From the IMG/VR virus record IMGVR_UViG_3300025131_007349: 64,000 nucleotides of DNA; one strand, given 5' to 3'. The position numbers were made by a program, and so were the translations under genes. Source of the stretch: an uncultured virus (IMG/VR IMGVR_UViG_3300025131_007349) (taxonomy: Duplodnaviria > Heunggongvirae > Uroviricota > Caudoviricetes). Numbering within the stretch: the first letter of the stretch is position 1; each line of letters opens with the position of its first letter. Positions 25,989 to 58,684 of this stretch are shown one piece after another. The notes beneath the pieces are model-generated. The model ran no database searches. It had not been told where the DNA came from and was given only the letters and a program-made list of their open reading frames with translations.

Positions 25989-26207
25989 ATGGAAAAGAAG
26001 AAATTACAAAATATATTAGAAGAACATAAAAATAAACCTAATAAAGACTTATTAGAAGCTGCAGATAGTTTAAAAAATGAATTTGAAGAAACAAAAGAAT
26101 TATTACTCAAATTAAGTAAACATTTAGATTTTGTAGAGGAAGCTTATTTTAAAGTTTATAATGAGTTAAAAGATAGAGCAAGATTAACAGAAGACAATGG
26201 CAGGTAA
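25989..26207 (+). CDS. Small coiled-coil hypothetical protein
   Basis: 72-aa ORF filling the gap between two larger genes and overlapping the next start. Confidence 0.7.
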   Translation: MEKKKLQNILEEHKNKPNKDLLEAADSLKNEFEETKELLLKLSKHLDFVEEAYFKVYNELKDRARLTEDNGR

Positions 26208-27885
26208 AGGAGTAGACAAAGCAAATCCCCAAAATAATATATATTTTGGAGTATGCATAGACAATAACGACCCAACAAGAGCGGGAAGAATTAGATTAGT
26301 AGCTGATTTTGAAAATAAAAGTGAAACACCTGAAAATTATGCTGCTGCTACTTATGAAGCGTCGTACAAAGAAAAAGATTATGCTACCGTGGAAGAAATG
26401 TACTGGACAAAAGATGACCCATTTCTAACCTTACCATTATTACCTATACATATAAATGTTTGTCCAAGCAATAGTGATAATGTCCCTATTATGTTTTACC
26501 AGGATGATAATAAAGAACAAAATAGAGTATACATAGGGTCAACTATTTCACAACCTCATTATTTAGGTGGTAAGGATTCTTTAGGTGAACATTATGGTTC
26601 AGGTAGAAAAGGTTATTCTAAAGGCACTAGAGACGAAGGAAAGGAAGCTATAACTAATAACGAAAAATCAGACGGAGCATTTGCTAACCCTAATACAGTT
26701 TCCATAGATGGGAAAGATAATGCAGACATTATACTAGGTTCTAGAGAAGTTGTTATTAGAGCTGGTAAGTTTAAACCGAACAAAGAGTCTCCATGGTTCC
26801 CAACAAAAAATGACGATGTTACTATGTTACAGTTATCTAGTTTTCTTACAGCAAAAGAAATGGAAAAGACGGTAGAAGAAGTACCTGAGGTAGAGGAAGC
26901 GGAAATTAGGTACTTAGTAGAATACCATATTGACGATTTTACTCAGGTAGGTGCTTTTAATGGTAACGTTAAATTATGGGAAGTAACACCTAATGAAGAG
27001 ATAGAAGACTCACGCCATCTAACAAGTAAAGATATTGGTAAAAGTACAAATATTTTAAGTTCATGGGACACAAAACCATTAGTGGAACTATCATTTAACT
27101 CACAACCAATAAGTGGGGTAACCTATTTAGTAAATAAGTTTATAAATGAAGCGAATGGTAGTGGGCCTGCTCTTAGTAGTAGATACCTAAACTCAACCCC
27201 AACAGTTACTCCAGGATGGGCAAAGAACGGTATTGGTATTGACCTTTCATCTAGCGGTTCAGAAGCACCAGCTGATGGTCCAGATTTACATAATTTACAT
27301 CCTTTTTACTATAGACCATCATTAGAATTTCAGAAGGTTATAGCAGATAATCTTACCGGATATGAAACAGCTATAGACATAGAGGCTACGATTAAGGGGG
27401 TTGTTGGTGTAGATGATAGTTTTGGTCTAGTTTTTTCACCATTAAATCCAGAACCTCAGGAGAAGATTAAAAAAGTAGAGTTAGAAGAAGCAAAAGATGA
27501 CCCAGATAAAGAACAGGGTGTCGCAACTTTACTTAGTGATAAAATACTATTTTTTGCTTATCCATCTAAGATTGCTAGTAAAGGTGAAACAAACCCAACT
27601 AAAGAATCAACGACAATATATAGTGAATCACCATACAAAACAGGTATAGACCAGAAGACACTAATTAAAACTCAGGATAAGCATATGGAACCTCTAGTTA
27701 GGGGAGAACAATTAATATTATTATTAGAAATGATGCATAAGTGGATGCAGGGACATTCTCATCATTTCCCTCAAGGAGCACCATTTGATAAACCTAAAGA
27801 AGGCAATGTTACATTAAGTGATATTGAGGAGGCTTTAGGAAATGCTAGGACAGAGATATTAAATCAGAATATTAGAATCAACTAA
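26197..27885 (+). CDS. Baseplate hub/central spike protein (gp5/VgrG-like OB-fold N-terminus)
   Basis: GVCIDNNDPTRAGRIR resembles the gp5 OB-fold motif (DP..xGRxRVR). The C-terminal HSHH resembles the HxH metal-binding spike tip. Confidence 0.65.
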   Translation: MAGKGVDKANPQNNIYFGVCIDNNDPTRAGRIRLVADFENKSETPENYAAATYEASYKEKDYATVEEMYWTKDDPFLTLPLLPIHINVCPSNSDNVPIMFYQDDNKEQNRVYIGSTISQPHYLGGKDSLGEHYGSGRKGYSKGTRDEGKEAITNNEKSDGAFANPNTVSIDGKDNADIILGSREVVIRAGKFKPNKESPWFPTKNDDVTMLQLSSFLTAKEMEKTVEEVPEVEEAEIRYLVEYHIDDFTQVGAFNGNVKLWEVTPNEEIEDSRHLTSKDIGKSTNILSSWDTKPLVELSFNSQPISGVTYLVNKFINEANGSGPALSSRYLNSTPTVTPGWAKNGIGIDLSSSGSEAPADGPDLHNLHPFYYRPSLEFQKVIADNLTGYETAIDIEATIKGVVGVDDSFGLVFSPLNPEPQEKIKKVELEEAKDDPDKEQGVATLLSDKILFFAYPSKIASKGETNPTKESTTIYSESPYKTGIDQKTLIKTQDKHMEPLVRGEQLILLLEMMHKWMQGHSHHFPQGAPFDKPKEGNVTLSDIEEALGNARTEILNQNIRIN

Positions 27886-37700: not shown

Positions 37701-40700
37701 TCTTGCGGATGGTACTGGAACTGGTGGATGCGTCCCTATCCCATGGCCTGTAGGATTTACTAACACCTTCTGCCTCCCTATAGCACCTACTACACCACCA
37801 TGTTCACTTTCATTAATTTTCACCAATCCTAATCCATCTAATAATCCAGTTAATTTACCAAACCCATCTTCGGATTACGAAGTTAAAGTAGAATATGGTG
37901 GAATGGGAACAGCTTGTAACTCACAATATACTGAGACCTGGATTGATGGTAGTATGACCAATTCAGGACAATTTGTATCACAAGGGATATATGATGTGGG
38001 GGTATGGCCTAACCCTGCAGGGGTTGGGACGGCGAAAGACCAAGTAATGGGTGCAGAGTATATGGTATTATTTATGTCCAGACAATCACAATCAGGACAA
38101 GTCTTTAATGGAGATAATTTTACAGCTAGCACCAACCCTTGGAATATTACGGTTTATCATCCGAATGGGTCTGGTACAATTATAGGAAGTTGGGAATATG
38201 ACTTAGTTAGGTACCCAACAGGTCCTGGATACCCTGTCGCTCTTTGTGACGCGACACCACCAGTACAATGTGTGTGGTCGTGCCAGAATGGTATGCAAGG
38301 TTGTATTGCTGGAGCTCCGCTACTGGGTATCTATACTCCTCTGTTTGAGGATTCTTACGCTTTCTGGTTTAAAAATCCAGTACCATCGAATAATGTGATT
38401 GACCTATCAGTTTATGGTCCATTGTCCGAACATTTCAATGATATGGTAATTAGTTGGGGTGAAAACTCATGTTGTTCTGGGGGGACAGAAAATTTAGTTT
38501 TAACAAAATATACATTACCTTCAGGGCCTCTTACTAATACAGTATTAGGTACCATATCTGGAGTAACAGCATTAGCTGGTTTAGAATGTGCAGGTGATTT
38601 TTGTGAGACACCTGAAAATCCATGCCCAACTACAACAACTACCACAATACCAGTATCAACAACAACTACGACCGACCCATGTGCTCCATCTACAACCACA
38701 ACGACAACTACAGAAGGACCACCAACAACCACAACTACAACTTATTATTCGTCTACAACTACTACCACACTTCTTGTACCTTGTGATTGTGAATGTCCAC
38801 CAAATCCACCAAGCCAATGCCCATGTATATTTTCAGGAACAAACATTTATGTGTTTTATGATGGTAGCCCTAGTTTCTCTGTTAGTGCCAATCAAATAGC
38901 TAATAATGTTGTTTTACCTTGGTTTAATCAATTTATTGCTCCATTAGCTGGATATGTTGGGTGTTTATATCAAGCTACTACCCCATTCCCTACACAAGCA
39001 ACAGCTGAATCATGGTTAAGATTTTCAAGATATCCATGGGAGGGAACAAACGCTTTTATCCCAACACCAATTTCTAGTGTGCCAGGTGGTTGTGCTAGTG
39101 GACTTGACATGCCAATAGCTCCAGCTCTAAACGACCCTAACGCTGTGGTAATTTCTTTTGTTAACGAATCAGCGGTTATGTATCAGGATTATCCATGGCC
39201 GGCATTCTGTAATGCTCCAAGTGGGGACGGCACTTTAATCCCACCAAATAATTGTAGTGATTGGAGAACCAACCAACCACAAAGTTGGCCTACTTCTGGT
39301 GGTGCATTGAGAGTGGTACCAACTCATGAATATTTAAAAGATTTTGATTCTTTTATGAACACTTATAATAATGGAATATGGGACCAAATATATGGTACTC
39401 CAGGTAATAATGGTTCATTTAATAGTTTTGTATATACATTACCAGTAAATGTTGTTCCATGGAACGAAAGACTTACTGAATTAAATGCTTATGCAGCTGT
39501 TGAAGGTAGAGTAGTTGCTCCAGTTGATTTTGTAGATATTGGAATGGCTAATAATGGTGGTGGGTTATATACATTTAGTGCAATAAAACAAACAAATCCA
39601 TATTGTGAACATGAGTGTTTCTGGGATGCAGGATATGGTCCAGGCCACACACCAGAAGGTAGATGTTTAAGTGGGTTAACCCATTTTGGTTTTGTTTCTG
39701 TACATAGTCACGAATATCTTTTATCTAATTGGTTAGGTAGTACACAAAATAATAATATTGGAATAGCTACATTATCAGCAACTGTATGTTTTAATACTGC
39801 ATGTACTTCAGGTATTACAGTAGAAGAGTGTTGTATTACTGGTCTAACAGCAGAACAATGGATAGTAGATAATCCTAGTGTAGTTAGTGGTTTGATTTTT
39901 GGTGAAACATTTAATGACCTTGACCATAATGCTTGTTATAAAGTTATAGCACCACCTAATCCTCCACCAACCAACGGAATAACTTTAAATCCACAATCAC
40001 CTACCTTTGGTAATGATAATTGTGGTGAATGTATGGCTGCTGGAGCATATTGTGAACCTACAACTACAACAACTACAAAAATATATCATACAACAACAAC
40101 TACTAGTACCACTATTAGAAGAATTTGGGGTGTGGAAAGATGTTGTTGCCCGACAGGAGAAACAGTCACTATACTAACTGCTACTACGGTTGCAACCCCT
40201 ATTAATTTTGAGAATGGAGGAGCTAGAACTCAGTCTATGAGTTTCGCTGATATTATGGATAATTCTGTTGTTCTTAATCAAGCTAATCCACAAGTAGTGT
40301 TTGTTACTACAACTACCACATTTCCCTTTCCGCATGATATTACATTACATTTCTACAAAAGTTGTCACCCTACTCCTGGTTGTCCACACTCCACACTTGA
40401 TGGGACGCCCTTCTGCTGGTTGTGGGAGGATACTCAAGGTAATGCACCTATGACCCTTCCATACAATATGGCAGGTGCTCAAGGAATCCCCCCATCATTA
40501 TCAAGCGCATTGGGTATCATGAACATGTCAATACAATTATGGATGCATCTGGGGAGCCCAAATGTGGGAGATTTATTTGAGATTGATAGGGAGCTGCAGG
40601 GGTCATTATGTTGGAATGGCCATGTCAACAATTGCTATGAATATATGGGAACAGAAACTCGTACATGGCCCACTGACCCTTGGTTTACTACACCAACCAG

Positions 40701-43700
40701 TCCTCCTTCAGGATTTAGTATTTTTTGGCTTTTGACAGGATGGTGGCTCGGAAATATGTCCCCGGGGTGTTGCTCACCATCTCCTAGTACTACTGGAATT
40801 CCATGTACATTCAGTATAAACACCTTTACCAGAGGACCTAATCTTCCTGACTGTACTAGTTGTTGTTCCCAGATTGTCCCACTCAGAAATCGTACCTTCC
40901 ATATATGGGAAGAATGTGTAATTAATGGATATTTCCCATTCGCCAGTCAACCTTTCCCACCTGGTCTGCATATAACTTATGATGGAATTCCGGGGGCAAT
41001 TGCTACTTGGGATTATACGACAGCAACTGGATTAGATGATGTAGAACATAATAGTAACTTATTCTATAATTGGGTTGGAGCACCTGGTCTTGGTGAAGTT
41101 GTTACAATACATGAAGCTCCTCCTGGTACAATAATGAATAGTTTGACTCTTTGTTTGAAATATATGGGACCTGTAACTACTAGTGCTGTTCCATGGACAC
41201 AACAAGCATGGCATGTTACGGCGCTTATGCCTTGGTCAACCGGAGGAACCAATAGTGATTGTTGTGTATGTACAAATTTACAAGCTAATACAGCACAAAG
41301 TTTACAAAGTTATTTACCCATCCCTACTTTAACAAATATAATGGGTAGTCAACTTAATATAGATAGCAGAAAAATTCCTGTAGGGCCACCAACAACTGCT
41401 TACTATGAACCTACAAGAGGCGCTAAAATACTAAATGGTTGGGAAGATATTAGTGTACATGGTTTAGCTTATTTAGTTAAAGTATGGACAAAAAATGGTG
41501 ACCAATATATCGCAGAAAGTGATGCAACATCATGTGCTTATATAGATAAAAAGGCATTTAGCACACCACCAACTACTCCAACAACTACTTATTTTGAGCA
41601 ACCAACTACTACAACAACTACTTATTTTGGGCAAACAACCACAACAACGACTTATTATCCAGCTACCACAACAACGACCTATTATCCAGCTACCACAACA
41701 ACGACCTACTTTGTACAACCAGCTACCACAACAACGACCTACTTTGTACAACCAACTACCACAACAACATACTTTGGGCAAACTACTACAACTACAACCT
41801 ACGCTATACCAACAGGTGGTCCCCTATCTAATTTTGTTGGAAATGGGTTAGATGGTACAGCATCAAATGCACCTCGAAGGGGTGATTTTATTAATTTATA
41901 TCAGGATAATGCCTATGGTTTCCAATCGATAGAGATTTTAGATATTGTAGACCAGAGTGAGTATGAATCAGGAAAAGTTAAATGTTCAGGACAAAGATTA
42001 ATTATATCTTCTGATATAGAACCAATCCCATTATTCGCGAGATTCCGAAATCTTGAAGTGTCCCTATCACAATCTCCTATACTCTCTACCACTACAACAA
42101 TATATCAGATACCACCTAGTCATATGTGGGAGACATGTTGGGTTGAGGAAAGTGATTACACACCAAACTGGTTTACACTACTGAATTTGGTTGGTAAGAC
42201 ATGGGGTGTCGAATATTACGCATCACCAAACTATATTGGGTCCGCTTGTTATGATTGGGTGGCAAACCCATCTACAACCCCTAGTTCTAATTTTATAGCA
42301 AATAGTAACGACTTTTATCAATATATGGGAGCTCCAAGTATTGGTGAGACCGTTAGACTTTGTTATTGGCATGATAATGTAGACTTTAATACATATACTT
42401 CAAATAATCAGCCTACAAGAATACCAGGTATGGCATGTGGTTGTCTGAGATATATGGGTGTTGGTGTCCCTAATTTCTATTCACATTTAAGATGTGAGGT
42501 GACCAATTCCAATATGGGAACCACTTGTTCAGATTGTGATATACCCATGAATACTGCTGCTAGTTTTGGTGGAAGTTTAACTAATAAAGGTATAACTTGG
42601 GATAATGTTATTACAAATACCGGATTAAATTCTTGTTGTTGTACTAATGAGTATAATACTGGTGTAGATTGTATGCCACCACGTACTTACCCTAACCCGT
42701 GTAGTGGGTATACATATACGGATTTATCAGGAATCCCTTCAGGTGGAACTTGGTATGACGCTACGTCAGGTGAATGCTTTACTCATATTGCTGACCCAGG
42801 ACTAACATATTTTGATTTTACTGCTCCAGTACCAAATCCAGGAGGATATTATCTAGATTGTGAGGAGTGTCATGATATGAATGAAATTATTTGTGACCCT
42901 ACAACAACCACTACAACAAGACCACGTGAAGTATGGGGGATAAAACCTTGTTGTTGTGATGAAAAAGATATGGTTGGTACCGTACCTAATGTTGGAGATA
43001 CTGGGGAAGCTGGAGGAATTATATTCCATGTAGACTCAATTAACAATACCATCTACGAAGTAGCACCAAAAGCACTGGAGATTGGTGGTTGGGGAATGAG
43101 ATGGGGTTGTTGGGGAACAAACGTACTATCCAATCCAACTCTAGGAACTTCAATAGGGATGGGTAAAACAAATACAAATGAAATTTTTGCTACTGCATGT
43201 TCAGACCCATGTCCATGGAAACCTTATTTACAGAGTTTAACAGTAACAACACCTAATGGAATACAATATCAAGATTGGTTTGCCCCAAGTTATGGTGAAT
43301 GGTTAAAATTATGGTTTAATATTGGTCCAGGACAAAGTGCATCATCACCATTATATAATTTAGCTGATATTGATGACTTAAAACCTTTTTCAGGGGCAAC
43401 ACCACAACCACCATATTGGATTACATCTAGTGAGAACCCTAACAATCCAACCTACGACACAATTAATATTGGTTTGGATGGAGCTAATCAAGTATTAAAT
43501 GGGTTAAATTGGTATAACGACATGGGTGACCTACAAAAGAATTTTCCATTCTTTTGGTTAAGACCTATTAGGTCCTATAACTACCAAGCTTGTTCTGGAT
43601 ACACAACTACTGACATATCACTAGTACCAATAGGAAATACTTGGTATGACCCATTATCTAATGAGTGTTATGAAAGAATAGCATATCCAGGACCAATAAA

Positions 43701-46700
43701 TTATACTGTTAACGTACCATTAAATGGTCCTTATGAAGATTGTGATTGTTGTGAAATAACTCATGGTATAGTTAGTGGATGTGTAACAACAACTACAACA
43801 ATCTGGGACCCACCAAAAACAACAACCACAACAACGAATAGACCAACCACAACTACCACTACTCGTCCAGCAGAATGTTATGGTATTAAACCTTGTTGTT
43901 GTTTAACAGGTGAGACTTGGGCAATAGGTTCTACTGGACCTAGTGGTGGAATAGTATTCTATCATGACGGTGATGGGAATTATTTAGAAATGGCACCATA
44001 CGATATAAACGTATCAAACTATAATTTACCACAAAATATAATAGCTGCTGACGCAACTGATTCGGCTCACACCTATACAATATGGGGATGTATGAATCTT
44101 TACATAAGTGGAACATCGAGAGAAATATTTGATGGTAAAGACAATACATTAAGAATAAACAACGCATGTACACCGAATACTTACGGGTATCCTTGTTGTC
44201 CTTCATGTACTACTGATGTTAATTGGATTCAGACTAATCCTTGCAGTGGTAGTTCTATACCTTTTACTTATAATTGTGTTACGATACCAGGTGAAGGTGA
44301 TGGGCCAACCACTTTTAGTTGTACAAAAGAATATATAGGAACAGATGTGTGGCCAAATCCTGGAAGTAATTTAGATGCTTCTAATATAACTCTTCATAGT
44401 GCAGCTCATATATGTTCAACATTCTCTTATAGTGGAAATTCAGATTGGTATTTACCTACCATTAAAGAAATGAATGAAATGTATAATAATCTTGTTGGTG
44501 CTACGGGTGGTCAAACATTAGGGTTGGCAAATCCTCTTGTAGCGGGACCACCAAACGAAACTTTTTATTCTACCTATAATTTTGCTGAAGGAGGACACTA
44601 TTGGACTTCTAGTGAATGTGATGCTAGTAGAGTAGAACATTTCCCAATGTTTAATGCGTTTAATAACATATATTTAAGTTTAGGTATTTCTGATGGACCT
44701 AATTATCCTACAGGAACACCATGTTCAGGAATAGATTCTATATTCCCAGAATTATTTGCTTCTGAGTTACACAGTAAATCTCTTATACCTTATCCTGATA
44801 CCGATAATAATATTATACAAGGTAGTCCAAAATATATTAGACCAGTTAGAAAATTTACAAGTAGTAATCTTTTTTGTTCTGGTTGTACTAAAACAGATTT
44901 AAGTTTTATGCCCCTAGGTCAAGTATTCTACGATTTAGCAACTAATATGTGTTATGAAAGAATAGCTATTCCTGGGCCAGACCTTTACACTATAGCTGTG
45001 GTGCCATCAGTATTCTATGATGAATGTGAAGGGGGTGGTGGAAATCCAGGATGTTTAGATGTTCACAAAGTTATTTGTACAACTACAACACATCCTCCAG
45101 TAACAACAACAACTACCGCATGGTCAGCTACTACGACCACTACAACAGCAAGATACGGAACCACAACCACAACAACCACATGTCAAGGTTTATCGGCTTG
45201 TTGCCCAACTGACACATATATGTTTGCAAGATGGTGTGGAGACCCGGCTTATTCAGGAGCTAACTTAAATGCATATAATGTATTCTACGACACTCTTACA
45301 AATACATGTTGGGAAACGATAGATTTAGAAATAGGTCCAGTAATCAGTATTAATTACCCACCGATGCCTATGTTTGATTGTGAGGGATGTAATCTGCTAA
45401 CTAATAATTGTACCACAACCACAACAACCACATGTCTACCTTTTGCTATTTCTGCTTGTTGTGAAGAGTATGTATTCTCATTAACAGCTTGTACTGGTGA
45501 TTTGACTTATCCATATGACCAAACTAATATATATGAAGGTCAAGGATTATTTGGGACAATTGGTGGGGTGGAACAATGCTATGTAGTTGTTCCTCATCAA
45601 CCGGTAGCACCACAAGTAGCGGCTGGATTTACCTATAGTTTCTGGTGTACAGACACAGTAGCAGCAGGAGACCCACCGTGTAAATGTTCTGGATGTACTG
45701 ACACTACTTTAACTTATACCGGAGGAACTGCATATCCTTGTGACCCAACAACTACAACCACAACTCAAAGATGTGATAATTGTATATGTTTATCTGGTAT
45801 CTCTCACTCAGAGATATTTTATACTGGACAAACCACATCCACTCTTGATGATGTATGTTTAACATCAGCTGACGGTACGTATTGTTTAGAAGAAGTTGTA
45901 ACAGCTGCGGGGAGTACTTGGTTATATTACAACCAAAACAATTGTCAAGCTATAGGATATTACCAGATAGTTCCATTCCAATATAGTTTTGTAGCACCAA
46001 ATTGGGAAATCTCATCATGGGTGGTACAATGGTGTGATAATCTTTTTTGTACAGGATGGAACAACCCATACCAAATAGCGACAGCTTCAACTATTGTTAA
46101 TACGTCAATACCAGCAACTAACCCAGCATGGGATATGGGCCAAACCGTATGGGAATACATAGATAACCAAGCAGGACCTATATCGGTAAATCCTCGTAAC
46201 CTATCTGTACAAGACCCATGTTACAATTATTCTGGTACAAGTCATACGGGTTGTTGTACTTCGTATGGGTTAATGACATGTTGTTATGACCCACTAGACC
46301 CTTATTGGGGAGAAGACCTATGTTGTAATGACAACCAACAATGGTTTAATACTGTTTATGATATACCTACTTTATTTAGTGGTACGTCATCCAATCCAAG
46401 CCTCATTCCAACAAGTGTTATACATATACAATGTCCTGATATGTGTCTTACTATTAGTGACGAAAATTATCAATCATGGGAACCAGTACCATGTGCACCG
46501 TTTTTAAATTTACGTAGTGTAGACTTGTCTTGGTCGATAACCAACCCTAACCCTTGTCTAGAATGTAAACATTTGGTTAATGACCCATGTGATTGTGTAA
46601 CATCAACAACTACGATTCCAGCTACTACGACTACAACTACTGGTCCAGTAACAACAACGACAACCACTTCCGGCCCATTAGGGTTAGAAGATTGTTGTGA

Positions 46701-48201
46701 CCCAAACATACAATATGTAGCAGCGGGAGCACTTTATACACTTCTTTCATCAATGATTGTAGGGCAAGCCTTTACTAGTACTATAGCTCCTTGTGATTGT
46801 TTTGGGTGTTGGAAAATAATAAATAACCCAGTTGGTCCAGTACAAACTTGGAGTAGTTCACCTTCTTTTGTGTCTTCATCATGTGCAGCGTTAAATACAG
46901 CTACAAATTATCGGGTATGTTGTCCAGTAAGCACAACCACTACTACAGTATATGGTACAACTACTACCACAACACATCAAACTCTAGGAGTTAAACAATG
47001 TTGTGACCCTTATACCGAATATATAGCTACAGGTGTTATATTAACTTGGTTAACTACTAATTTACTAATAGGTGAGGTGGTATATGGTGATATTATCACA
47101 GCACCATTTTCACTCCAGTCCGGATGTTGGGAGTTTATAGCAAACACGACCGGCCCGGGTACAGCTGTTTCTATATCACCGACCAATACCTATTCATCTC
47201 CATTCCCATGTTCAGCATGTACCACTATTAATGAAACTGCTGCGTGTACTACTACAACCACAAGTCCAGGTATAATAGGTATTGAGGCTTGTTGTCCAGA
47301 CCTACTTACCGGTGCATTTGACCAATATGTAGCGGGAGGGGCATTTGAAATATATCTTAATGGTCTAACTATAGGTCAAGCATTCGAAATTACATTTAAT
47401 ATTCCTGGGGTTGGAGATATTACTGGATGTTATAAAATTATAAGTAACCCTATCGGTTTAACAGTAACAGTTTTTGTGACCCCAACAAGTGTATACCATA
47501 ATTGTAATGCGTTAGAAGCTGCTATACACTTTAGATGTTGTGAACAGCCACCAACAACTACAACTACAACAGTATCAGAAATGTCAATAGTAAAACATTG
47601 TTGTACTGGGGATGTTTATGAATTAGTAGGTGATGCCGGTGCTTTAAGTAGCGTGGCTGGACTTAATAATAATGACACATTTAGATTAGTGGGGATTGGT
47701 CCTCCATTTGATGGTATGGCTTGTTGTTTCCATAAATGTGATGGTTGTGCCCCTATTGTAGGGCCAATTACTGGTACCTTCCTCTACCCTATTTGGGCAG
47801 CGACCCCAGGTCCTCAGTGTGATGTTTGTCATCGATTCGGACAATCAGATGGATGTTGTCCAACTACAACAACCACAACTATGGTGAGAGCTGGGTTAGG
47901 GCTAGAAGCGTGTTGTGAAACTTATCCTGGGTCTTCGATATACATACAATATGTGCCTATTGGAACATTACTTAGTAACATAGGGGCTTTAACTTTAGGG
48001 ACAGCACATTTATTTGTACTTAATGGTACTCCGGTGTGTGCAACGGTAATTAATAACCCAATTGGTCTTAATGTTACAGGAAGTATAGTACAATCACCAC
48101 CAACAGATATGGATTGCCACGACCTTATCACATGGATGCCTCCATCATTGATGCAATGTTGTCCGGTAACAACAACTACGACATGTACACCCATAAACTA
48201 A
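34705..48201 (+). CDS. Giant 4498-aa Cys-rich poly-Thr modular protein (propeller-like, vWA-like and two DUF1566-like domains)
   Basis: Uninterrupted 13.5-kb ORF with many T5-T8 tracts. Carries YVFYDGSPS (MIDAS-like), two GGI(I/V)F...DW(F/Y)xP...YW..SSE...RP(I/V)R domains and repeated GxExCC modules. Confidence 0.85.
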   Translation: MPSPNFSAYTIQSLSVFGPNVWKYDLYQWNFAPLGSTPPLIPRTEVGTTESIHSSYSGPQFNMNPYYGMTQKNGKLYGFGAENNTSQYQWPGQIFQIDQDWGGRAKTIYSGLTGVLPFGFQVCNVGGFAYDKANDCFTLLKGTTMLHTTPPPLPNPYFANGERYLHTWGVSHTFATPQLPFYSGVTCLLETAIGLAYRNSELYAVAYISGMTPGLTFQHINTNSGINTILSYSPLSVDSVINVSTQGWGGGDLTYDEVGDNFYFLSHNGTAKIDPQFYTWEVVPSTATTQQYWGGVSSFEIGGFEIIEPSVTTTTTLCTEIYSVEVSPDYLNATISLCDSACTNCDIVYVSGCTAPVFGWCTADTTCFDLTLECCKTYCIEVSAPGDNCSYTEYVTSSCPSTTTTTTYTPPEPTTTTTTTECVCVYPVEYFNGTLSGITYLGDTLEGTYCNDDFAPFIYNHISNPINSILTHGILIKQTAWGSLPISNNWWSLIRDIGASNYLLVGTGSTLTTVYKGIPPLVDDFLVVTGQCECTTTTTLDPSLTTTTTLDPSLTTTTTLDPAFTTTTTTTLHPCDFGPVPLTGDCPTTTTTTVPPTTTTTTADPCDFGIIPLTGDCVTSTTTLGPRTTTTTTIPCCYECCLITGDWEIINTGTTGNNSFYSIHKTSPHNQATLPIALKDPTMWGALPHMFFQGFAKRTTNNFLYGAFLEHKFDNACNGTFRYDLHIYQVNPNTGSGALAQTYTGYDACTNGGGIRTDELGEGCLGYDSLNDKLIFIPYNNTVHPVYQIQPWVNGNVTYLGDFTVMGSTPNQYAHMSGLSNIPGTNSFYCYLDECSFTPTPPGGTVNCNSTGGYVCGFDTTTLNSSILPLPINPLPNSSIAAGLLYDCDDLYIVRRMPSCSGCTPQQYTNTWIDNNDTLPGNCSSNVLPPCAPGGSDWYFGYSYLAMVFDQQDKDGNIVTIDMLTGDTSCPFIFTITDPATGTFIGQWEYDIAMDGNYPLADGTGTGGCVPIPWPVGFTNTFCLPIAPTTPPCSLSLIFTNPNPSNNPVNLPNPSSDYEVKVEYGGMGTACNSQYTETWIDGSMTNSGQFVSQGIYDVGVWPNPAGVGTAKDQVMGAEYMVLFMSRQSQSGQVFNGDNFTASTNPWNITVYHPNGSGTIIGSWEYDLVRYPTGPGYPVALCDATPPVQCVWSCQNGMQGCIAGAPLLGIYTPLFEDSYAFWFKNPVPSNNVIDLSVYGPLSEHFNDMVISWGENSCCSGGTENLVLTKYTLPSGPLTNTVLGTISGVTALAGLECAGDFCETPENPCPTTTTTTIPVSTTTTTDPCAPSTTTTTTTEGPPTTTTTTYYSSTTTTTLLVPCDCECPPNPPSQCPCIFSGTNIYVFYDGSPSFSVSANQIANNVVLPWFNQFIAPLAGYVGCLYQATTPFPTQATAESWLRFSRYPWEGTNAFIPTPISSVPGGCASGLDMPIAPALNDPNAVVISFVNESAVMYQDYPWPAFCNAPSGDGTLIPPNNCSDWRTNQPQSWPTSGGALRVVPTHEYLKDFDSFMNTYNNGIWDQIYGTPGNNGSFNSFVYTLPVNVVPWNERLTELNAYAAVEGRVVAPVDFVDIGMANNGGGLYTFSAIKQTNPYCEHECFWDAGYGPGHTPEGRCLSGLTHFGFVSVHSHEYLLSNWLGSTQNNNIGIATLSATVCFNTACTSGITVEECCITGLTAEQWIVDNPSVVSGLIFGETFNDLDHNACYKVIAPPNPPPTNGITLNPQSPTFGNDNCGECMAAGAYCEPTTTTTTKIYHTTTTTSTTIRRIWGVERCCCPTGETVTILTATTVATPINFENGGARTQSMSFADIMDNSVVLNQANPQVVFVTTTTTFPFPHDITLHFYKSCHPTPGCPHSTLDGTPFCWLWEDTQGNAPMTLPYNMAGAQGIPPSLSSALGIMNMSIQLWMHLGSPNVGDLFEIDRELQGSLCWNGHVNNCYEYMGTETRTWPTDPWFTTPTSPPSGFSIFWLLTGWWLGNMSPGCCSPSPSTTGIPCTFSINTFTRGPNLPDCTSCCSQIVPLRNRTFHIWEECVINGYFPFASQPFPPGLHITYDGIPGAIATWDYTTATGLDDVEHNSNLFYNWVGAPGLGEVVTIHEAPPGTIMNSLTLCLKYMGPVTTSAVPWTQQAWHVTALMPWSTGGTNSDCCVCTNLQANTAQSLQSYLPIPTLTNIMGSQLNIDSRKIPVGPPTTAYYEPTRGAKILNGWEDISVHGLAYLVKVWTKNGDQYIAESDATSCAYIDKKAFSTPPTTPTTTYFEQPTTTTTTYFGQTTTTTTYYPATTTTTYYPATTTTTYFVQPATTTTTYFVQPTTTTTYFGQTTTTTTYAIPTGGPLSNFVGNGLDGTASNAPRRGDFINLYQDNAYGFQSIEILDIVDQSEYESGKVKCSGQRLIISSDIEPIPLFARFRNLEVSLSQSPILSTTTTIYQIPPSHMWETCWVEESDYTPNWFTLLNLVGKTWGVEYYASPNYIGSACYDWVANPSTTPSSNFIANSNDFYQYMGAPSIGETVRLCYWHDNVDFNTYTSNNQPTRIPGMACGCLRYMGVGVPNFYSHLRCEVTNSNMGTTCSDCDIPMNTAASFGGSLTNKGITWDNVITNTGLNSCCCTNEYNTGVDCMPPRTYPNPCSGYTYTDLSGIPSGGTWYDATSGECFTHIADPGLTYFDFTAPVPNPGGYYLDCEECHDMNEIICDPTTTTTTRPREVWGIKPCCCDEKDMVGTVPNVGDTGEAGGIIFHVDSINNTIYEVAPKALEIGGWGMRWGCWGTNVLSNPTLGTSIGMGKTNTNEIFATACSDPCPWKPYLQSLTVTTPNGIQYQDWFAPSYGEWLKLWFNIGPGQSASSPLYNLADIDDLKPFSGATPQPPYWITSSENPNNPTYDTINIGLDGANQVLNGLNWYNDMGDLQKNFPFFWLRPIRSYNYQACSGYTTTDISLVPIGNTWYDPLSNECYERIAYPGPINYTVNVPLNGPYEDCDCCEITHGIVSGCVTTTTTIWDPPKTTTTTTNRPTTTTTTRPAECYGIKPCCCLTGETWAIGSTGPSGGIVFYHDGDGNYLEMAPYDINVSNYNLPQNIIAADATDSAHTYTIWGCMNLYISGTSREIFDGKDNTLRINNACTPNTYGYPCCPSCTTDVNWIQTNPCSGSSIPFTYNCVTIPGEGDGPTTFSCTKEYIGTDVWPNPGSNLDASNITLHSAAHICSTFSYSGNSDWYLPTIKEMNEMYNNLVGATGGQTLGLANPLVAGPPNETFYSTYNFAEGGHYWTSSECDASRVEHFPMFNAFNNIYLSLGISDGPNYPTGTPCSGIDSIFPELFASELHSKSLIPYPDTDNNIIQGSPKYIRPVRKFTSSNLFCSGCTKTDLSFMPLGQVFYDLATNMCYERIAIPGPDLYTIAVVPSVFYDECEGGGGNPGCLDVHKVICTTTTHPPVTTTTTAWSATTTTTTARYGTTTTTTTCQGLSACCPTDTYMFARWCGDPAYSGANLNAYNVFYDTLTNTCWETIDLEIGPVISINYPPMPMFDCEGCNLLTNNCTTTTTTTCLPFAISACCEEYVFSLTACTGDLTYPYDQTNIYEGQGLFGTIGGVEQCYVVVPHQPVAPQVAAGFTYSFWCTDTVAAGDPPCKCSGCTDTTLTYTGGTAYPCDPTTTTTTQRCDNCICLSGISHSEIFYTGQTTSTLDDVCLTSADGTYCLEEVVTAAGSTWLYYNQNNCQAIGYYQIVPFQYSFVAPNWEISSWVVQWCDNLFCTGWNNPYQIATASTIVNTSIPATNPAWDMGQTVWEYIDNQAGPISVNPRNLSVQDPCYNYSGTSHTGCCTSYGLMTCCYDPLDPYWGEDLCCNDNQQWFNTVYDIPTLFSGTSSNPSLIPTSVIHIQCPDMCLTISDENYQSWEPVPCAPFLNLRSVDLSWSITNPNPCLECKHLVNDPCDCVTSTTTIPATTTTTTGPVTTTTTTSGPLGLEDCCDPNIQYVAAGALYTLLSSMIVGQAFTSTIAPCDCFGCWKIINNPVGPVQTWSSSPSFVSSSCAALNTATNYRVCCPVSTTTTTVYGTTTTTTHQTLGVKQCCDPYTEYIATGVILTWLTTNLLIGEVVYGDIITAPFSLQSGCWEFIANTTGPGTAVSISPTNTYSSPFPCSACTTINETAACTTTTTSPGIIGIEACCPDLLTGAFDQYVAGGAFEIYLNGLTIGQAFEITFNIPGVGDITGCYKIISNPIGLTVTVFVTPTSVYHNCNALEAAIHFRCCEQPPTTTTTTVSEMSIVKHCCTGDVYELVGDAGALSSVAGLNNNDTFRLVGIGPPFDGMACCFHKCDGCAPIVGPITGTFLYPIWAATPGPQCDVCHRFGQSDGCCPTTTTTTMVRAGLGLEACCETYPGSSIYIQYVPIGTLLSNIGALTLGTAHLFVLNGTPVCATVINNPIGLNVTGSIVQSPPTDMDCHDLITWMPPSLMQCCPVTTTTTCTPIN
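36307..36396 (+). repeat. 30-bp coding tandem repeat, 3 copies (TTTTTLDPSL)
   Basis: Near-perfect copies of ac(a/t)ac..ac.ac.acgac(a)ttagacccgtctctt; the third copy is more diverged (LDPAF). Confidence 0.85.
41572..41805 (+). repeat. Coding tandem repeats TTTTT-Y(F/Y)-(xQ)P(A)
   Basis: Repeated ccagctaccacaacaacgacctac/tat units of about 27-33 bp. Confidence 0.8.
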
Positions 48202-54281: not shown

Positions 54282-56723
54282 ATGGCTTGGTTTTGTCCTA
54301 CAGAATTAGATTTAGTAAATCCCATCATGACACCTTATCCGTGTTGTGTACAAGGGCCAGCACCACTCAACCATCTAGTTTTTGGTACACAACAGGCTTG
54401 TCATGATAACACATCTTGTTGTAATAATGCCAATCAACCTGGAACAGGTAATTTAGATGTATGTTGCGGAGGTATAGACCAAGGTGACCCCTGTATCTAT
54501 ACTGCTTGGTTATCACTGACCCAAACACAAAGAGACGGTATATGTCAATATTGTATGGCGAGTGACCCCCTTAATAACCCTTGTCTTTCTGAAGTTTCTT
54601 TATACTGCAGGTGTTGTGATGGATGCAACCCAACAACTTCTACTACAACTCAAGAGATTGTAAGAGGGGTAAGAAGGTGCCCACAATTTGGTCCACAATT
54701 AGAATTTAGGGCAGACGCAAATCCTTTATTTACAATAGTTTGGTCATATCCTATTGGTACTGTATTAGCACTTGAAATTATTTATATAACTTTACAAGCT
54801 ATATTCACTTATAGAGCTTGTTGGGAAATTATAGAGTTAGTAAACCCATATTATTCTTGTGATGCGGCAAATGGAACATTATTAAATCCTACACCAGGTA
54901 TAGACTGTTCTAAATGTGTGGTTCCACCAGGCCCAGAAATCTGTACAACCACCACCACATCTGAACCACCACCTGCCCCATATTGGTGTATTAAAAAATG
55001 TTGTGATGATTCCTTACACAAAATAGACGCTACTTTTCCATGGGATTGGTCTGGAACTCTTGGTGCATACGTTCCAGGAACTGCATTTTTATCTCAATCT
55101 TTTAATAATTTAAATGGTACTGGATTACAAGAGTGTTACTCTCTCCCCGACCCACCAGTATTTGGGTGTGGTAACCTCCCTACACTTGTATTAGCTCCAC
55201 CAATAGTGGTTTTCCTACAAACTATACCACCCCAACCTAGCTTATGTGATGATTGTTTATGGATGTACGAATATGGCCAAATTGGTGATGTATACCAATG
55301 GTTTCCACCAACTTTACCACCACCTACAGGACAAGCAGTAGATACTGGGGTAGATGTTAACTTATGTGACCCAAGTGGTGCCACCACAACAACTACACTA
55401 ACTCCTGGTACAACTACCACAACAACAGTATGTATATGGGGTTGCACGGACCCACTAGATTGTAATTATGACCCAACTGCTACTTGTGATGATGGTTCTT
55501 GTATGTCGCTTGTTTATGGCTGTATGGATAGTGGTAATTGTATAGGGACTAGTTGTCCAGGACCTGGTGGTACTTGCCAAACTCCTAGTACTTACTATGT
55601 GTCACCTTATCCTGGATGTCAAGCTCTTAATTATTATCCTGGTGCGAACTTTATGGACGCTAATAACCCGTGTTATGGTTATTGTAATTGTTTAGACCCA
55701 AGTGGTACAAATTATAATGATACTGGTGAAATCGGTTGGGTTCCACCAGCTAACGCCGCCGTATGGATAAATGGGTTGTATATTGACTGTGCAGGTGTAG
55801 TACAAATGATAGGGCTAGTTTGGAATGGTAATGTAGGAGACACTTCTTGTTGTGGCCCTATAGTAACGACAACAACTACAGTATGTATATGGGGTTGCAC
55901 AGACCCAACACAAGTAAATTTTGACCCATTAGCTACTTGTAATGATGGAAGTTGTATCCCAATTATTTATGGATGCATGGATGATGGTTGCTGTACTACC
56001 GGTATAGGTCCAGACCCACTTGTTGGTGACCCCTGTGCTGGTGGAGCTACAGGGTTATATCATTTGTGTCCACAAGGTATTATAGGAGGTCCTTCATATA
56101 ATTCACCATTACCTCCTCCTGGAGCACTTAATTATTATCCTGGTGCTAATATAAACTCTCAGTGTCTTTATCCTCCTCTAGCAATTACATTTTTCGAAGT
56201 GGGACTACCTTATCCTGCGCCTTGTGCAAATTATCCAAACTCATCTCCTGGGCAATGTGGAGCAACATATAATATTAATATTAATACAGGTACTTCAGCA
56301 GATATCCCTCAAGGGGAAATTAAGTTTACTTTTGAAGCACATACTACAAATCCAGGTGTTTATTATGATGCTCCAACACCTTCCACTTATACTCATAATA
56401 CAGTAACCACCTCTTTAGATTTTGATTGTCAAAGTTATGTATATTGCACAGGGGCAGCCTATTCAGGAGCTTTTACGTATATAGGTGGTTTAGGAGCACT
56501 AACTAATGTTGAAGGTTCTGTACCAGTTAAAGTAATTATAGAATTAACGATGGCGGCCAACGGAGGCATATTGCTAGGAGAAGCTGTACTACAAGATGGG
56601 GCTACATCAGCAAATATCAGTATTGGTTATACTAATAATTTATCAGTTGTTGCCGGAGGTTTTTTCACTCAGACTTGTAATCCATCCGCTTCATCTCCTG
56701 GAGGTGTAGGGGGTTGTGTATAA
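54282..56723 (+). CDS. Cys-rich poly-Thr protein with GCTDP..NYDP.A..DDGSC repeats
   Basis: WGCTDPLDCNYDPTATCDDGSC and WGCTDPTQVNFDPLATCNDGSC, each followed by YGCMD and ALNYYPGAN. Confidence 0.8.
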   Translation: MAWFCPTELDLVNPIMTPYPCCVQGPAPLNHLVFGTQQACHDNTSCCNNANQPGTGNLDVCCGGIDQGDPCIYTAWLSLTQTQRDGICQYCMASDPLNNPCLSEVSLYCRCCDGCNPTTSTTTQEIVRGVRRCPQFGPQLEFRADANPLFTIVWSYPIGTVLALEIIYITLQAIFTYRACWEIIELVNPYYSCDAANGTLLNPTPGIDCSKCVVPPGPEICTTTTTSEPPPAPYWCIKKCCDDSLHKIDATFPWDWSGTLGAYVPGTAFLSQSFNNLNGTGLQECYSLPDPPVFGCGNLPTLVLAPPIVVFLQTIPPQPSLCDDCLWMYEYGQIGDVYQWFPPTLPPPTGQAVDTGVDVNLCDPSGATTTTTLTPGTTTTTTVCIWGCTDPLDCNYDPTATCDDGSCMSLVYGCMDSGNCIGTSCPGPGGTCQTPSTYYVSPYPGCQALNYYPGANFMDANNPCYGYCNCLDPSGTNYNDTGEIGWVPPANAAVWINGLYIDCAGVVQMIGLVWNGNVGDTSCCGPIVTTTTTVCIWGCTDPTQVNFDPLATCNDGSCIPIIYGCMDDGCCTTGIGPDPLVGDPCAGGATGLYHLCPQGIIGGPSYNSPLPPPGALNYYPGANINSQCLYPPLAITFFEVGLPYPAPCANYPNSSPGQCGATYNININTGTSADIPQGEIKFTFEAHTTNPGVYYDAPTPSTYTHNTVTTSLDFDCQSYVYCTGAAYSGAFTYIGGLGALTNVEGSVPVKVIIELTMAANGGILLGEAVLQDGATSANISIGYTNNLSVVAGGFFTQTCNPSASSPGGVGGCV

Positions 56724-56755: not shown

Positions 56756-58684
56756 ATGGCATGTAATTTAACGGGAATAACAATTAATATAGGTGGTGGT
56801 ATTTCACCCTATAATATAAGTCTTTGTGACCAAGGATGTGAAACTGGTTGCAATAATGTAGCTTCTACGAATTATGATTGTGTTTATTTTACCGCATGTT
56901 GTGGAACTTATGGTTTATTAATAGAAGATGTTTCTGGATGTACAAGTTGTTCTGATTTAATAGTAGATACTTGTTTTACTACTACGACAACTACAACCGT
57001 AGCTCCAGCTACCACCACAACGACAATATCTCCAGCTACTACAACAACATCAACTACGTCAGCTCCTACAGCTGCTACATTGTTTAGACCATGTGATGGC
57101 CAAAGTGGATGCACAGGCCATCCTAATATTATAACACCAAGTGTTGTAGGGGGTGGAGCAGAAATTACTATGTCAATGAACATACCGTCCTATACTAGAG
57201 TAAAAGGAGCTACTATTTCTACCGATGATATATATTCCGGTTATACTGATTCTGATGGAATCGAACATATGTCATACCATGATTATATAGTAAACAAATA
57301 TGCAGATACTATCACCTCTACAGGAGTAACTTCTATACATGTAGGACGAAAAATCACCAATAATATAGATACAGGTGTTTATTGTATCACTATAAGTGTT
57401 GTAGAAAAGAAAGATTTAAGTGAACTAAGTGAGAGTGAATTATTACCAACAGAACTAGACGAGATACCAACAGATATAGTAGCGACAGGGGAATATATAT
57501 TACACTCTTCATGTTTATATGATAAAGCTTTAATACTAACTGAAAGTACACAATGTCTCCCTAGTTTCCCTCCAGGTACTTTTGGGTGTGGTCCTTTGAA
57601 TGGGACAGTTATTAGTTACCCTGCCTGTTCAGACCATGGAAATCCTTATTATTCACCAGCTACTAACCAGAGAGCTATTCCTGGTGGCGTTAGTATTGGT
57701 ACAACCAATTCACTTGCTGCATTTGGTGGTAGAGTAAATGGGACATTAGGATGGTTAGCTTATGATAATAGTGACGACAGAATAGTTGCTATAACCAATA
57801 ATCACGTTATAGGATATAATTTTGTTGCGGCAGGATTAAACGCAGACCCAATTAATTATCCTGGTTTAGATTGTGGTTCTGCTGCCGGTGCAACTTCAAA
57901 TGGTGGAGCACAACCACCAAACTGGACAACAGGTTACGTAACCCAACAACCAAGCTATCCAGATAACGGATATTCAAGTGCTGGGGTACAAATGGGTTCA
58001 GTAAAAAGATTCCATCCTATATGTCACGATTATACACAAAATAAGGTTGATGGTGCGGTTATAGAATTAACCGAAGAACCTACAACCACTCAACTAGGTC
58101 TTGCATGGGGACCTTTCCAACACGCTACAACAGCAGAAATAAATGCATGTGTAGGAAGTTATGTTTATAAAGTAGGAAGAACTACTGGTAATATGTTAAG
58201 TGTAAGTTATCCAGATGTTGTAATAACTACAGTTAACGCAGCTAATATAGCATTAGACGGGACAGGTCTCTTTAAGTACAACAACCAAATAATATATCAA
58301 TCAGTAGGCGATGGTGACCCATCCGCGGGTGCTCCAGGTGATTCTGGTTCTTCTCTTTTATGTTGTGTAGGTGGAGCATTAAAAGTAGTTGGACTTAATT
58401 TTGCAGGTAATTATCCAACAGGAATATGTTGTGGATTTAGTGCAGGTGATATAAATACTATATGGCCTAATGGGTTTATTGCTATTGCCAATCGTATAGA
58501 CGAAGTAGAATCTAAATTAAATATTTCTTCATGGGACGGTTCTATAGTAGTATCTTCTACAGCATCTAACTATATAAAAGTTAATGATAAATGTTATTAT
58601 AACGCAGGAACTACTACCAGACCAGTACAACACACTATAGATGCTTCTTATACAGATTGTTCATCTTGTAATTCTTCTATCTAA
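56756..58684 (+). CDS. Poly-Thr/Cys-rich protein carrying a trypsin-like (S1, Nal1-like) serine protease domain
   Basis: GTLG, ITNNHV (His), VDGAVI (Asp), KVGRTTG and PGDSGS (Ser). Preceded by a prodomain-like segment (V..KK...LP....PTD.V). Confidence 0.8.
   Translation: MACNLTGITINIGGGISPYNISLCDQGCETGCNNVASTNYDCVYFTACCGTYGLLIEDVSGCTSCSDLIVDTCFTTTTTTTVAPATTTTTISPATTTTSTTSAPTAATLFRPCDGQSGCTGHPNIITPSVVGGGAEITMSMNIPSYTRVKGATISTDDIYSGYTDSDGIEHMSYHDYIVNKYADTITSTGVTSIHVGRKITNNIDTGVYCITISVVEKKDLSELSESELLPTELDEIPTDIVATGEYILHSSCLYDKALILTESTQCLPSFPPGTFGCGPLNGTVISYPACSDHGNPYYSPATNQRAIPGGVSIGTTNSLAAFGGRVNGTLGWLAYDNSDDRIVAITNNHVIGYNFVAAGLNADPINYPGLDCGSAAGATSNGGAQPPNWTTGYVTQQPSYPDNGYSSAGVQMGSVKRFHPICHDYTQNKVDGAVIELTEEPTTTQLGLAWGPFQHATTAEINACVGSYVYKVGRTTGNMLSVSYPDVVITTVNAANIALDGTGLFKYNNQIIYQSVGDGDPSAGAPGDSGSSLLCCVGGALKVVGLNFAGNYPTGICCGFSAGDINTIWPNGFIAIANRIDEVESKLNISSWDGSIVVSSTASNYIKVNDKCYYNAGTTTRPVQHTIDASYTDCSSCNSSI

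Follow-up and report, generated by a model that had tools for sequence, protein, structure and literature searches.

Two small cysteine-rich modules interrupted by putative lectin-like domains in a giant threonine-linked protein of an uncultured jumbo phage

Introduction

Can a cysteine-rich module of about 85 residues hold a complete second domain in one of its loops? The question is raised by G1 (P0001), a giant protein encoded in a 64,000-nucleotide stretch of DNA from an uncultured tailed virus (IMG/VR record IMGVR_UViG_3300025131_007349; the whole stretch is called the window here). G1 is rich in threonine (14.3%) and cysteine (5.0%), and splitting it at runs of at least four threonines yields around 19 units of more than 60 residues. 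An initial annotation of the window had proposed that the two halves of one cysteine-rich module bracket a variety of cargo domains along this protein and its neighbours. Our analysis indicates that the idea of domain insertion is sound at the level of sequence for two adjacent modules, I1 and I2, and that its generality was overstated.

Results

Two modules of G1 appear to be interrupted by a domain

I1 (42919-43785, residues 2739-3027) and I2 (43864-45078) each consist of an hG[ILV]xxCC(C) opening, a cargo and a closing half of about 70 residues. The sole opening motif of either unit lies 6 residues past the preceding linker; opening, cargo and closing half are joined by connectors of 7-12 residues, with no Thr linker inside. 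The distance from the opening to the core cysteine is 243 residues in I1 and 356 in I2, against about 35-52 in the uninterrupted modules E1-E4 of the same protein. The motifs on which the initial annotation was built were recovered exactly, the openings W/YG[IV]xxCCC at residues 1808, 2744 and 3059 (nucleotides 40126, 42934 and 43879) and the closings CSGxTxTD at residues 2666, 2963 and 3391 (nucleotides 42700, 43591 and 44875). The uninterrupted copy described as coming next is real as well; it is E3.

A hidden Markov model (HMM) of 90 positions was trained on nothing but uninterrupted modules, eight in all: E1-E4 from the window and E1-E4 from the orthologous locus L001. It matches the closing halves of I1 and I2 with independent E-values (iE) of 3.4e-9 and 1.3e-6, at positions 28-88 only; the first third of the module is therefore missing at that spot. 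Taken together, the N- and C-terminal flanks of I1 and I2 align with a whole uninterrupted copy, the opening being placed at HMM positions 5-14, and the closing half of I1 is 42% identical to E2 over 73 residues (E 1e-13). The alignment of the flanking halves with empty modules, which the initial annotation implied, is thus borne out. Scored alone, the opening of I1 or I2 is weak and not statistically significant.

Proteins so biased in composition invite the suspicion that the resemblance arose by chance or from composition alone, as can happen in Cys- and Thr-rich low-complexity sequence, and three of the four library matches to the module profile were indeed spurious. Even so, this explanation is very improbable. 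The motif G[ILV]xxCC occurs at 10 sites in G1, where 2000 shuffles gave a mean of 0.16 and a maximum of 3, and at 6 sites in the next open reading frame (ORF), G2, where the shuffle mean was 0.09; 14 of these 16 sites start 2-8 residues past a poly-Thr run. The similarity of I1 to E2 given above, HMM E-values reaching 1e-30 and the identity of modules among orthologues (61-81%) likewise speak against it.

The insert is recognisable as an autonomous domain, DUF1566/Lcl_C-like at sub-threshold level. Three of the five I-type sequences match Lcl_C at E≤0.1 (best E 1.1e-7), and for P0009, a fragment of an I2 orthologue, PF07603 is listed in the source record. For the I1 cargo, an ESM Atlas lead lies beside the Lcl_C cluster (score 0.90). 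The motifs DW(Y/F)xP, YW(T/I)SS and RP(I/V)R were recognised, which we take to be typical of DUF1566/Lcl_C. The N-termini of the two cargoes are 33% identical over 36 residues (E 2e-4), with further weak segments in collinear order, and the I2 cargo is about 115 residues longer. As judged from these alignments, the cargoes are diverged tandem paralogues of one family and not, as had been suggested, different domains; a single insertion followed by duplication therefore suffices to account for both.

Table 1. Features of G1 and its neighbours in the window, with the two split modules first.
Feature	Position	Strand	Basis or remark
I1 opening (RPREVWGIKPCCC...)	42919-42972	+	motif, HMM position
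I1 cargo, 199 aa, DUF1566/Lcl_C-like (GGIIFHVD, DWFAPSYGEW, YWITSSE, LRPIR)	42973-43569	+	ESM Atlas lead, I1/I2 alignment
I1 closing half	43570-43785	+	HMM, alignment to E2
I2 opening (RPAECYGIKPCCC...)	43864-43917	+	motif, HMM position
I2 cargo, 314 aa, DUF1566/Lcl_C-like, with extra Cys-rich stretch	43918-44859	+	Pfam PF07603
I2 closing half	44860-45078	+	HMM
G1 (P0001), giant ORF, 4498 aa	34705-48201	+	poly-Thr linkers joining Cys-rich modules
E1, uninterrupted, own opening GITVEECC	39790-40059	+	HMM iE 3e-30, positions 1-89
Orphan opening WGVERCCC, residues 1808-1816	40126-40152	+	HMM positions 7-19 only, iE 2.9
F3a and F3b, complete modules of a third type	40330-41274	+	alignment of 9 copies, three orthologues
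Long Thr-rich linker, 65 aa, residues 2301-2365	41605-41799	+	linker segmentation, orthologue comparison
F3c, third F3-type module	42112-42540	+	alignment of 9 copies
E2, complete, uninterrupted; opening GLNSCCC (residue 2640), 19-aa loop, closing CSGYTYTD	42604-42900	+	motif, HMM, alignment
E3, uninterrupted	45175-45411	+	HMM, motif
E4, uninterrupted, longer tail	45430-45747	+	HMM, motif
Five C-terminal family-1 modules, about 90 aa each	46669-48168	+	distantly related to E-type over full length
G2, 1999 aa	48238-54237	+	seven more family-1 modules, none split
G4, 642 aa, protease-like body after Thr linkers	56756-58684	+	phrog_20754, E 1.9e-17

The two halves as a probable single folding unit

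That both halves of I1 and of I2 fold into one domain around the insert is, in our judgement, probable. The HMM built from uninterrupted modules aligns the more distant family-1 modules over positions 3-88, four of the five in G1 with iE between 3.6e-6 and 3e-3 and those of G2 with an iE of 1e-5. Because it spans these distant modules from opening to closing, the two parts form one evolutionary unit. A direct comparison of E-type and family-1 modules by hhalign returned a probability of only 18%; the relation has firmer support from the plain HMM search. Throughout the window, a closing half is always accompanied by an opening in its own linker-delimited unit (6/6 for the E- and I-type, 12/12 for family 1). 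In a relative with a genome record of 297.6 kb there are five E/I-type and 12 family-1 matches, all in two orthologous ORFs; here too a closing half never occurs without an opening in its own unit, and none of the 12 family-1 modules is split.

The same architecture could also be built without any nesting, if the closing part of about 70 residues were autonomous, the hG[ILV]xxCC element were a cap that follows a linker, and I1 and I2 were a cap, a DUF1566-like domain and a small domain in tandem. The opening at residue 1808 fits such a scheme, standing as it does without a closing, and so do the lack of statistical significance of the opening by itself and the failure of AlphaFold2 to give a confident packing. 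The scheme is harder to reconcile with the other 16 modules of the window, in all of which opening and closing make up one short unit, with the coverage of family-1 modules by the HMM, opening included, and with the absence of any closing half lacking an opening in its own unit. The cysteines of family 1 point the same way: its opening has two invariant adjacent cysteines, which should need partners, and the other four conserved cysteines all lie in the closing part. We therefore consider a tandem of independent parts unlikely, with the nested fold as the preferred interpretation.

Several observations weigh against a nested fold that displays a lectin-like cargo. The opening at residue 1808 is not followed by an E-type closing of its own, so the opening motif can occur alone. 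AlphaFold2 modelled the segment E2-I1-I2-E3 (936 residues, four orthologue rows) with a mean predicted local distance difference test score (pLDDT) of 26.1, and I1 with 13 paralogue and orthologue rows reached a mean of 40.1 and a predicted template modelling score (pTM) of 0.34. Cysteines, counted by hand, are odd in number in several units and differ between orthologues; as the counts are not consistently even, a disulfide map cannot be inferred from them. The match of the I2 cargo to PF07603 (E 1.3e-5, 25.9 bits) falls under the gathering cut-off of 34.9 bits, I1 has no Pfam match at E≤0.1, and a search of PDB sequences with the cargo profile gave nothing relevant, hence no solved structure. 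The location of G1 in the virion and its binding to glycans are inferred from context.

In the I1 model, pLDDT is at least 50 only at residues 6-14, in the opening, and at 225-255 and 275-277, in the closing half, a weak hint that the network may associate the one with the other. When the I1 opening (residues 1-32) and closing half (220-289) were predicted as a two-chain complex, the scores were 0.23 and 0.06, against a mark of 0.32, which counts neither for nor against an association. A search of the relative genome for an Erv1/ALR sulfhydryl oxidase gave no match, and since the controls were unmatched too, this negative carries no information.

Other proposed cargoes and variation among relatives

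Three further cargoes had been assigned to the same site in the initial annotation, a composite of about 850 residues, a von Willebrand factor A (vWA)-like domain and a protease; none of them is supported by comparison with the complete modules. The composite arose when the closing at 42700 was paired with the opening at 40126. A nearer opening, GLNSCCC at residue 2640, belongs to this closing (residue 2666) and lies 26 residues upstream of it, which makes E2 a complete, uninterrupted module. The span between residue 1808 and E2 is taken up by three complete modules, F3a, F3b and F3c, each of which opens with hHhWExC and closes with FYxxhGxPxxGE...CxxYhG...CxxC, by the 65-residue Thr linker and by further domains; since separate modules and a linker fill it, the composite cargo does not exist. 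The vWA-like region (38770-39789) precedes E1 and is not inserted in it, because E1 carries an opening of its own, GITVEECC. Searched at E≤0.1, the stretch 38770-39790 matched no Pfam family, vWA included; it has a weak collinear similarity (E 0.15) to a domain of P0007. The C-terminal tail of the protease-like G4 (...KCYY...DCSSC) lines up with the expected part of the HMM, with an iE of 2.4 that is not significant, and is closing-like by eye only.

Within this region, F3a (40330-40890) is by far the most divergent part of G1 among orthologues, with identities of 31-35% where most other modules have 61-88%, which makes it a candidate specificity determinant. The 65-residue linker is found neither in P0003 nor in the near-identical strain L003 and thus presents a linker-length polymorphism among close relatives.

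Architecture and cargo are unchanged in four full-length orthologues, which are 74-98% identical over the region (the intact ones, P0002-P0004, have 4457-4512 residues), and three protein fragments and four metagenome loci hold the identical cargo at the identical sites. The cargo of I2 is the most conserved part, at 81-88% identity to P0003 and P0004. The expectation that orthologues would carry different cargo was disappointed: no cargo swapping was seen among the four full-length orthologues, three fragments and four loci, a very narrow sample. Some variation of length does occur. The loop of E2, 19 residues long in both the window and P0004, reaches 25 in P0003 and P0011; a change of length is thus tolerated at this site. 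The end of the loop, CMP(P/E/K)R (CMPPR in the window), was aligned by MAFFT with the end of the cargo, (L/I)RP(I/V)R, from which E2 may be a module that has lost its cargo.

A general plug-in display site, which would take up many types of cargo (the 850-residue composite, lectin-like, vWA-like, protease) and exchange them among relatives, is improbable in the light of these results. In ORFs A, G1-G4 and G6 there are indeed many units that begin with a Cys strand and end in a loosely similar hairpin with CxxC, and P0007 has a closing-like element directly past a large domain (iE 1.8e-5). These similar unit ends in neighbouring ORFs keep a broader idea of a clasp alive and do not establish it. 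Against a general site stand the mispaired composite, the opening that E1 has for itself, the insignificant tail of the protease, the constancy of cargo and site among all orthologous sequences, the unsplit family-1 modules of the relative genome and the membership of both real cargoes in one family. What remains of the original proposal is the pair of split modules, I1 and I2, with their DUF1566/Lcl_C-like inserts.

Variation inside a cargo takes a different form. In L003, a strain almost identical to the window, a patch of about 40 residues in the I1 cargo (about 43170-43290) resembles the 74%-identical L001, which suggests a recombination mosaic within the lectin-like domain. A diversity-generating retroelement was considered as a source of cargo variation and rejected, because the direct repeats in 30000-64000 are linker and module paralogues only and include no template repeat; no search for a reverse transcriptase was made.

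Distribution of the module family

When the module profile was compared with 1.84 billion representative proteins, four weak matches were obtained at E≤1e-3, three of them spurious repeat proteins and the fourth (P0007) a weak relative, at most one match being plausible. I1 alone, used as a query, found no homologues of 158-506 residues. A phage collection gave no match at DNA or protein level, scans of viral and metagenome contigs recovered the same clade only, and searches of PDB sequences with family-1 and closing-half profiles gave nothing relevant. The module family thus appears to be very rare, limited to a few related phages from metagenomes, and, on the profiles used, new to Pfam, PHROGs and the PDB.

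P0007, the sole plausible distant relative in that collection of representatives, is a protein of 1176 residues with Cys modules linked by Pro, Thr and Ser. Its closing-like element occupies residues 800-837, and the large domain directly before it is the one that weakly resembles 38770-39790 of the window.

Genomic setting

G1 lies in the part of the genome devoted to baseplate and fibres, in a tailed jumbo phage of about 300 kb, as follows from an ORF resembling Phage_base_V/Gp5_OB, from the terminase and from the relative of 297.6 kb; this last record is 93% complete, and the records of the relatives include a terminase. The ORF in question (26197-27885, 562 residues) lies about 7 kb upstream of G1. 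It has no Pfam or PHROG match, and its ESM Atlas lead (score 0.92) is to Phage_base_V/Gp5_OB baseplate spike clusters.

G1 belongs to no PHROG family, and its single Pfam match is the sub-threshold one to Lcl_C. On its 3' side follow further Cys- and Thr-rich ORFs of 1999, 813, 642 and 1057 residues. For G1 and these neighbouring giant proteins together, the libraries offered that Lcl_C match, a protease PHROG for the 642-residue ORF (G4) and almost nothing else. Like the fibre proteins, G4 carries Thr linkers and, at its N-terminus, a Cys module; from these sequence features it may be a protease displayed on the virion. G3 (55379-56150) has two tandem repeats of about 150 residues that start VCIWGCTDP...(N/Q)(Y/F)DP.ATC(D/N)DGSC.

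Judged by their translations, genes in the left half of the window code for glycosyltransferases, GDP-sugar dehydratases and epimerases, sulfotransferase-like proteins, PhoH (also recognised by PHROG) and dUTPase. Some 20 genes on the same strand, at 1630-22953, have, from their translations, a sugar-modifying look and adjoin the poly-Thr giant proteins. Their types are glycosyltransferases, GDP-mannose 4,6-dehydratases (two copies), NAD-dependent epimerases or reductases, an aminotransferase, sulfotransferase-like proteins, a methyltransferase and an asparagine-synthase-like protein. This cluster might glycosylate the poly-Thr linkers.

Discussion

We propose that G1 is a virion-associated adhesin or fibre protein of a tailed phage of about 300 kb, made up of disulfide-rich modules of about 80-105 residues strung on poly-Thr linkers. 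Each module would start with a short strand, hG[ILV]xxCC(C), and end with a hairpin, G..(W/F)YD....C(Y/F/W)xxI, and a CxxC-type tail. Where the module is uninterrupted, a loop that varies among modules and orthologues would join the two parts; in the adjacent paralogues I1 and I2 this loop would be replaced by a complete DUF1566/Lcl_C-like domain. The opening strand would then pack against the closing half and be disulfide-bonded to it, and the lectin-like head would project sideways from the Thr-linked thread, where it could serve in glycan or surface binding. The most likely history would be a single insertion into an ancestral module and a subsequent tandem duplication. Domains are commonly combined by insertion, and the termini of an inserted domain are close together; in C-type-lectin-like folds the N- and C-termini are adjacent.

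A more sweeping version would make every linker-delimited unit, be it lectin-like, protease, vWA-like or hypervariable F3, a pendant on a thread glycosylated by the upstream sugar genes. The N-terminal Cys strand and the C-terminal hairpin with CxxC would close into one small disulfide clasp, the Thr thread would enter and leave at one point, and any domain could hang there; the glycosylated thread would be, in a phage, what glycosylated fibrils are in giant viruses. We hold this extension to be distinctly doubtful, and return to the two nested modules.

If the halves do fold together, the module of about 85 residues would be among the smallest known natural scaffolds that tolerate a domain of 200-300 residues in a loop. 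It could then be a natural template to display binding domains on phage fibres, and the principle of the evolved distal tail protein (evolved Dit, or evoDit) would hold for an uncultured jumbo phage as well as for small dairy phages. Any structure of the module family would be new, because it has no relative in Pfam, PHROGs or the PDB and occurs in few related metagenomic phages.

I1 and I2 share with discontinuous domains in general that one domain is interrupted by another. They differ in the unusually small size of the host, a module for which there is neither a solved structure nor a confidently predicted one in any member. The runs of 5-7 threonines between compact modules, and a linker length that differs even between near-identical strains, are reminiscent of surface proteins linked by Thr or Pro-Thr (with cellulosomal or Bacteroidota-type linkers, or with mucin-like stalks). 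In contrast to these, G1 is phage-encoded and adjoins about 20 sugar-modifying genes.

The cargo finds its likeness in Lcl_C (PF07603), to which the I2 cargo and its best relative are matched at the E-values given above. The C-terminal domain of the Legionella collagen-like adhesin (Lcl-CTD) is C-type-lectin-like, binds glycosaminoglycans and forms a lectin-like head on a long stalk (PMC11162425). There DUF1566/Lcl_C is a stand-alone domain at the C-terminus, past the collagen stalk, and Lcl-CTD is described as lacking disulfides (PMC11162425), whereas the cargo of G1 is Cys-rich and placed within another module.

As to the insertion, a parallel is offered by the evolved Dits of siphophages that infect lactococci and streptococci, in which internal insertions encode carbohydrate-binding modules and promote host binding (PMC10688798; PMC7533335). 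The N- and C-terminal parts that flank the insert align with the classical protein, and 16 groups of inserts are distinguished (PMC10688798). Both cases have a domain of carbohydrate-binding type within a protein of the phage adhesion device, a function that is predicted for G1. Unlike the evolved Dits, G1 has no Dit homology (no such Pfam or PHROG match), and the host of the insertion is a Cys-rich module of about 85 residues in a Thr-linked giant protein instead of a baseplate ring protein. The inserts differ too, the cargo of G1 being DUF1566-like and not BppA-like, and one cargo family stands against the 16 insert groups. The evolved Dit is the closest precedent: G1 would work alike, and is not a member of that family.

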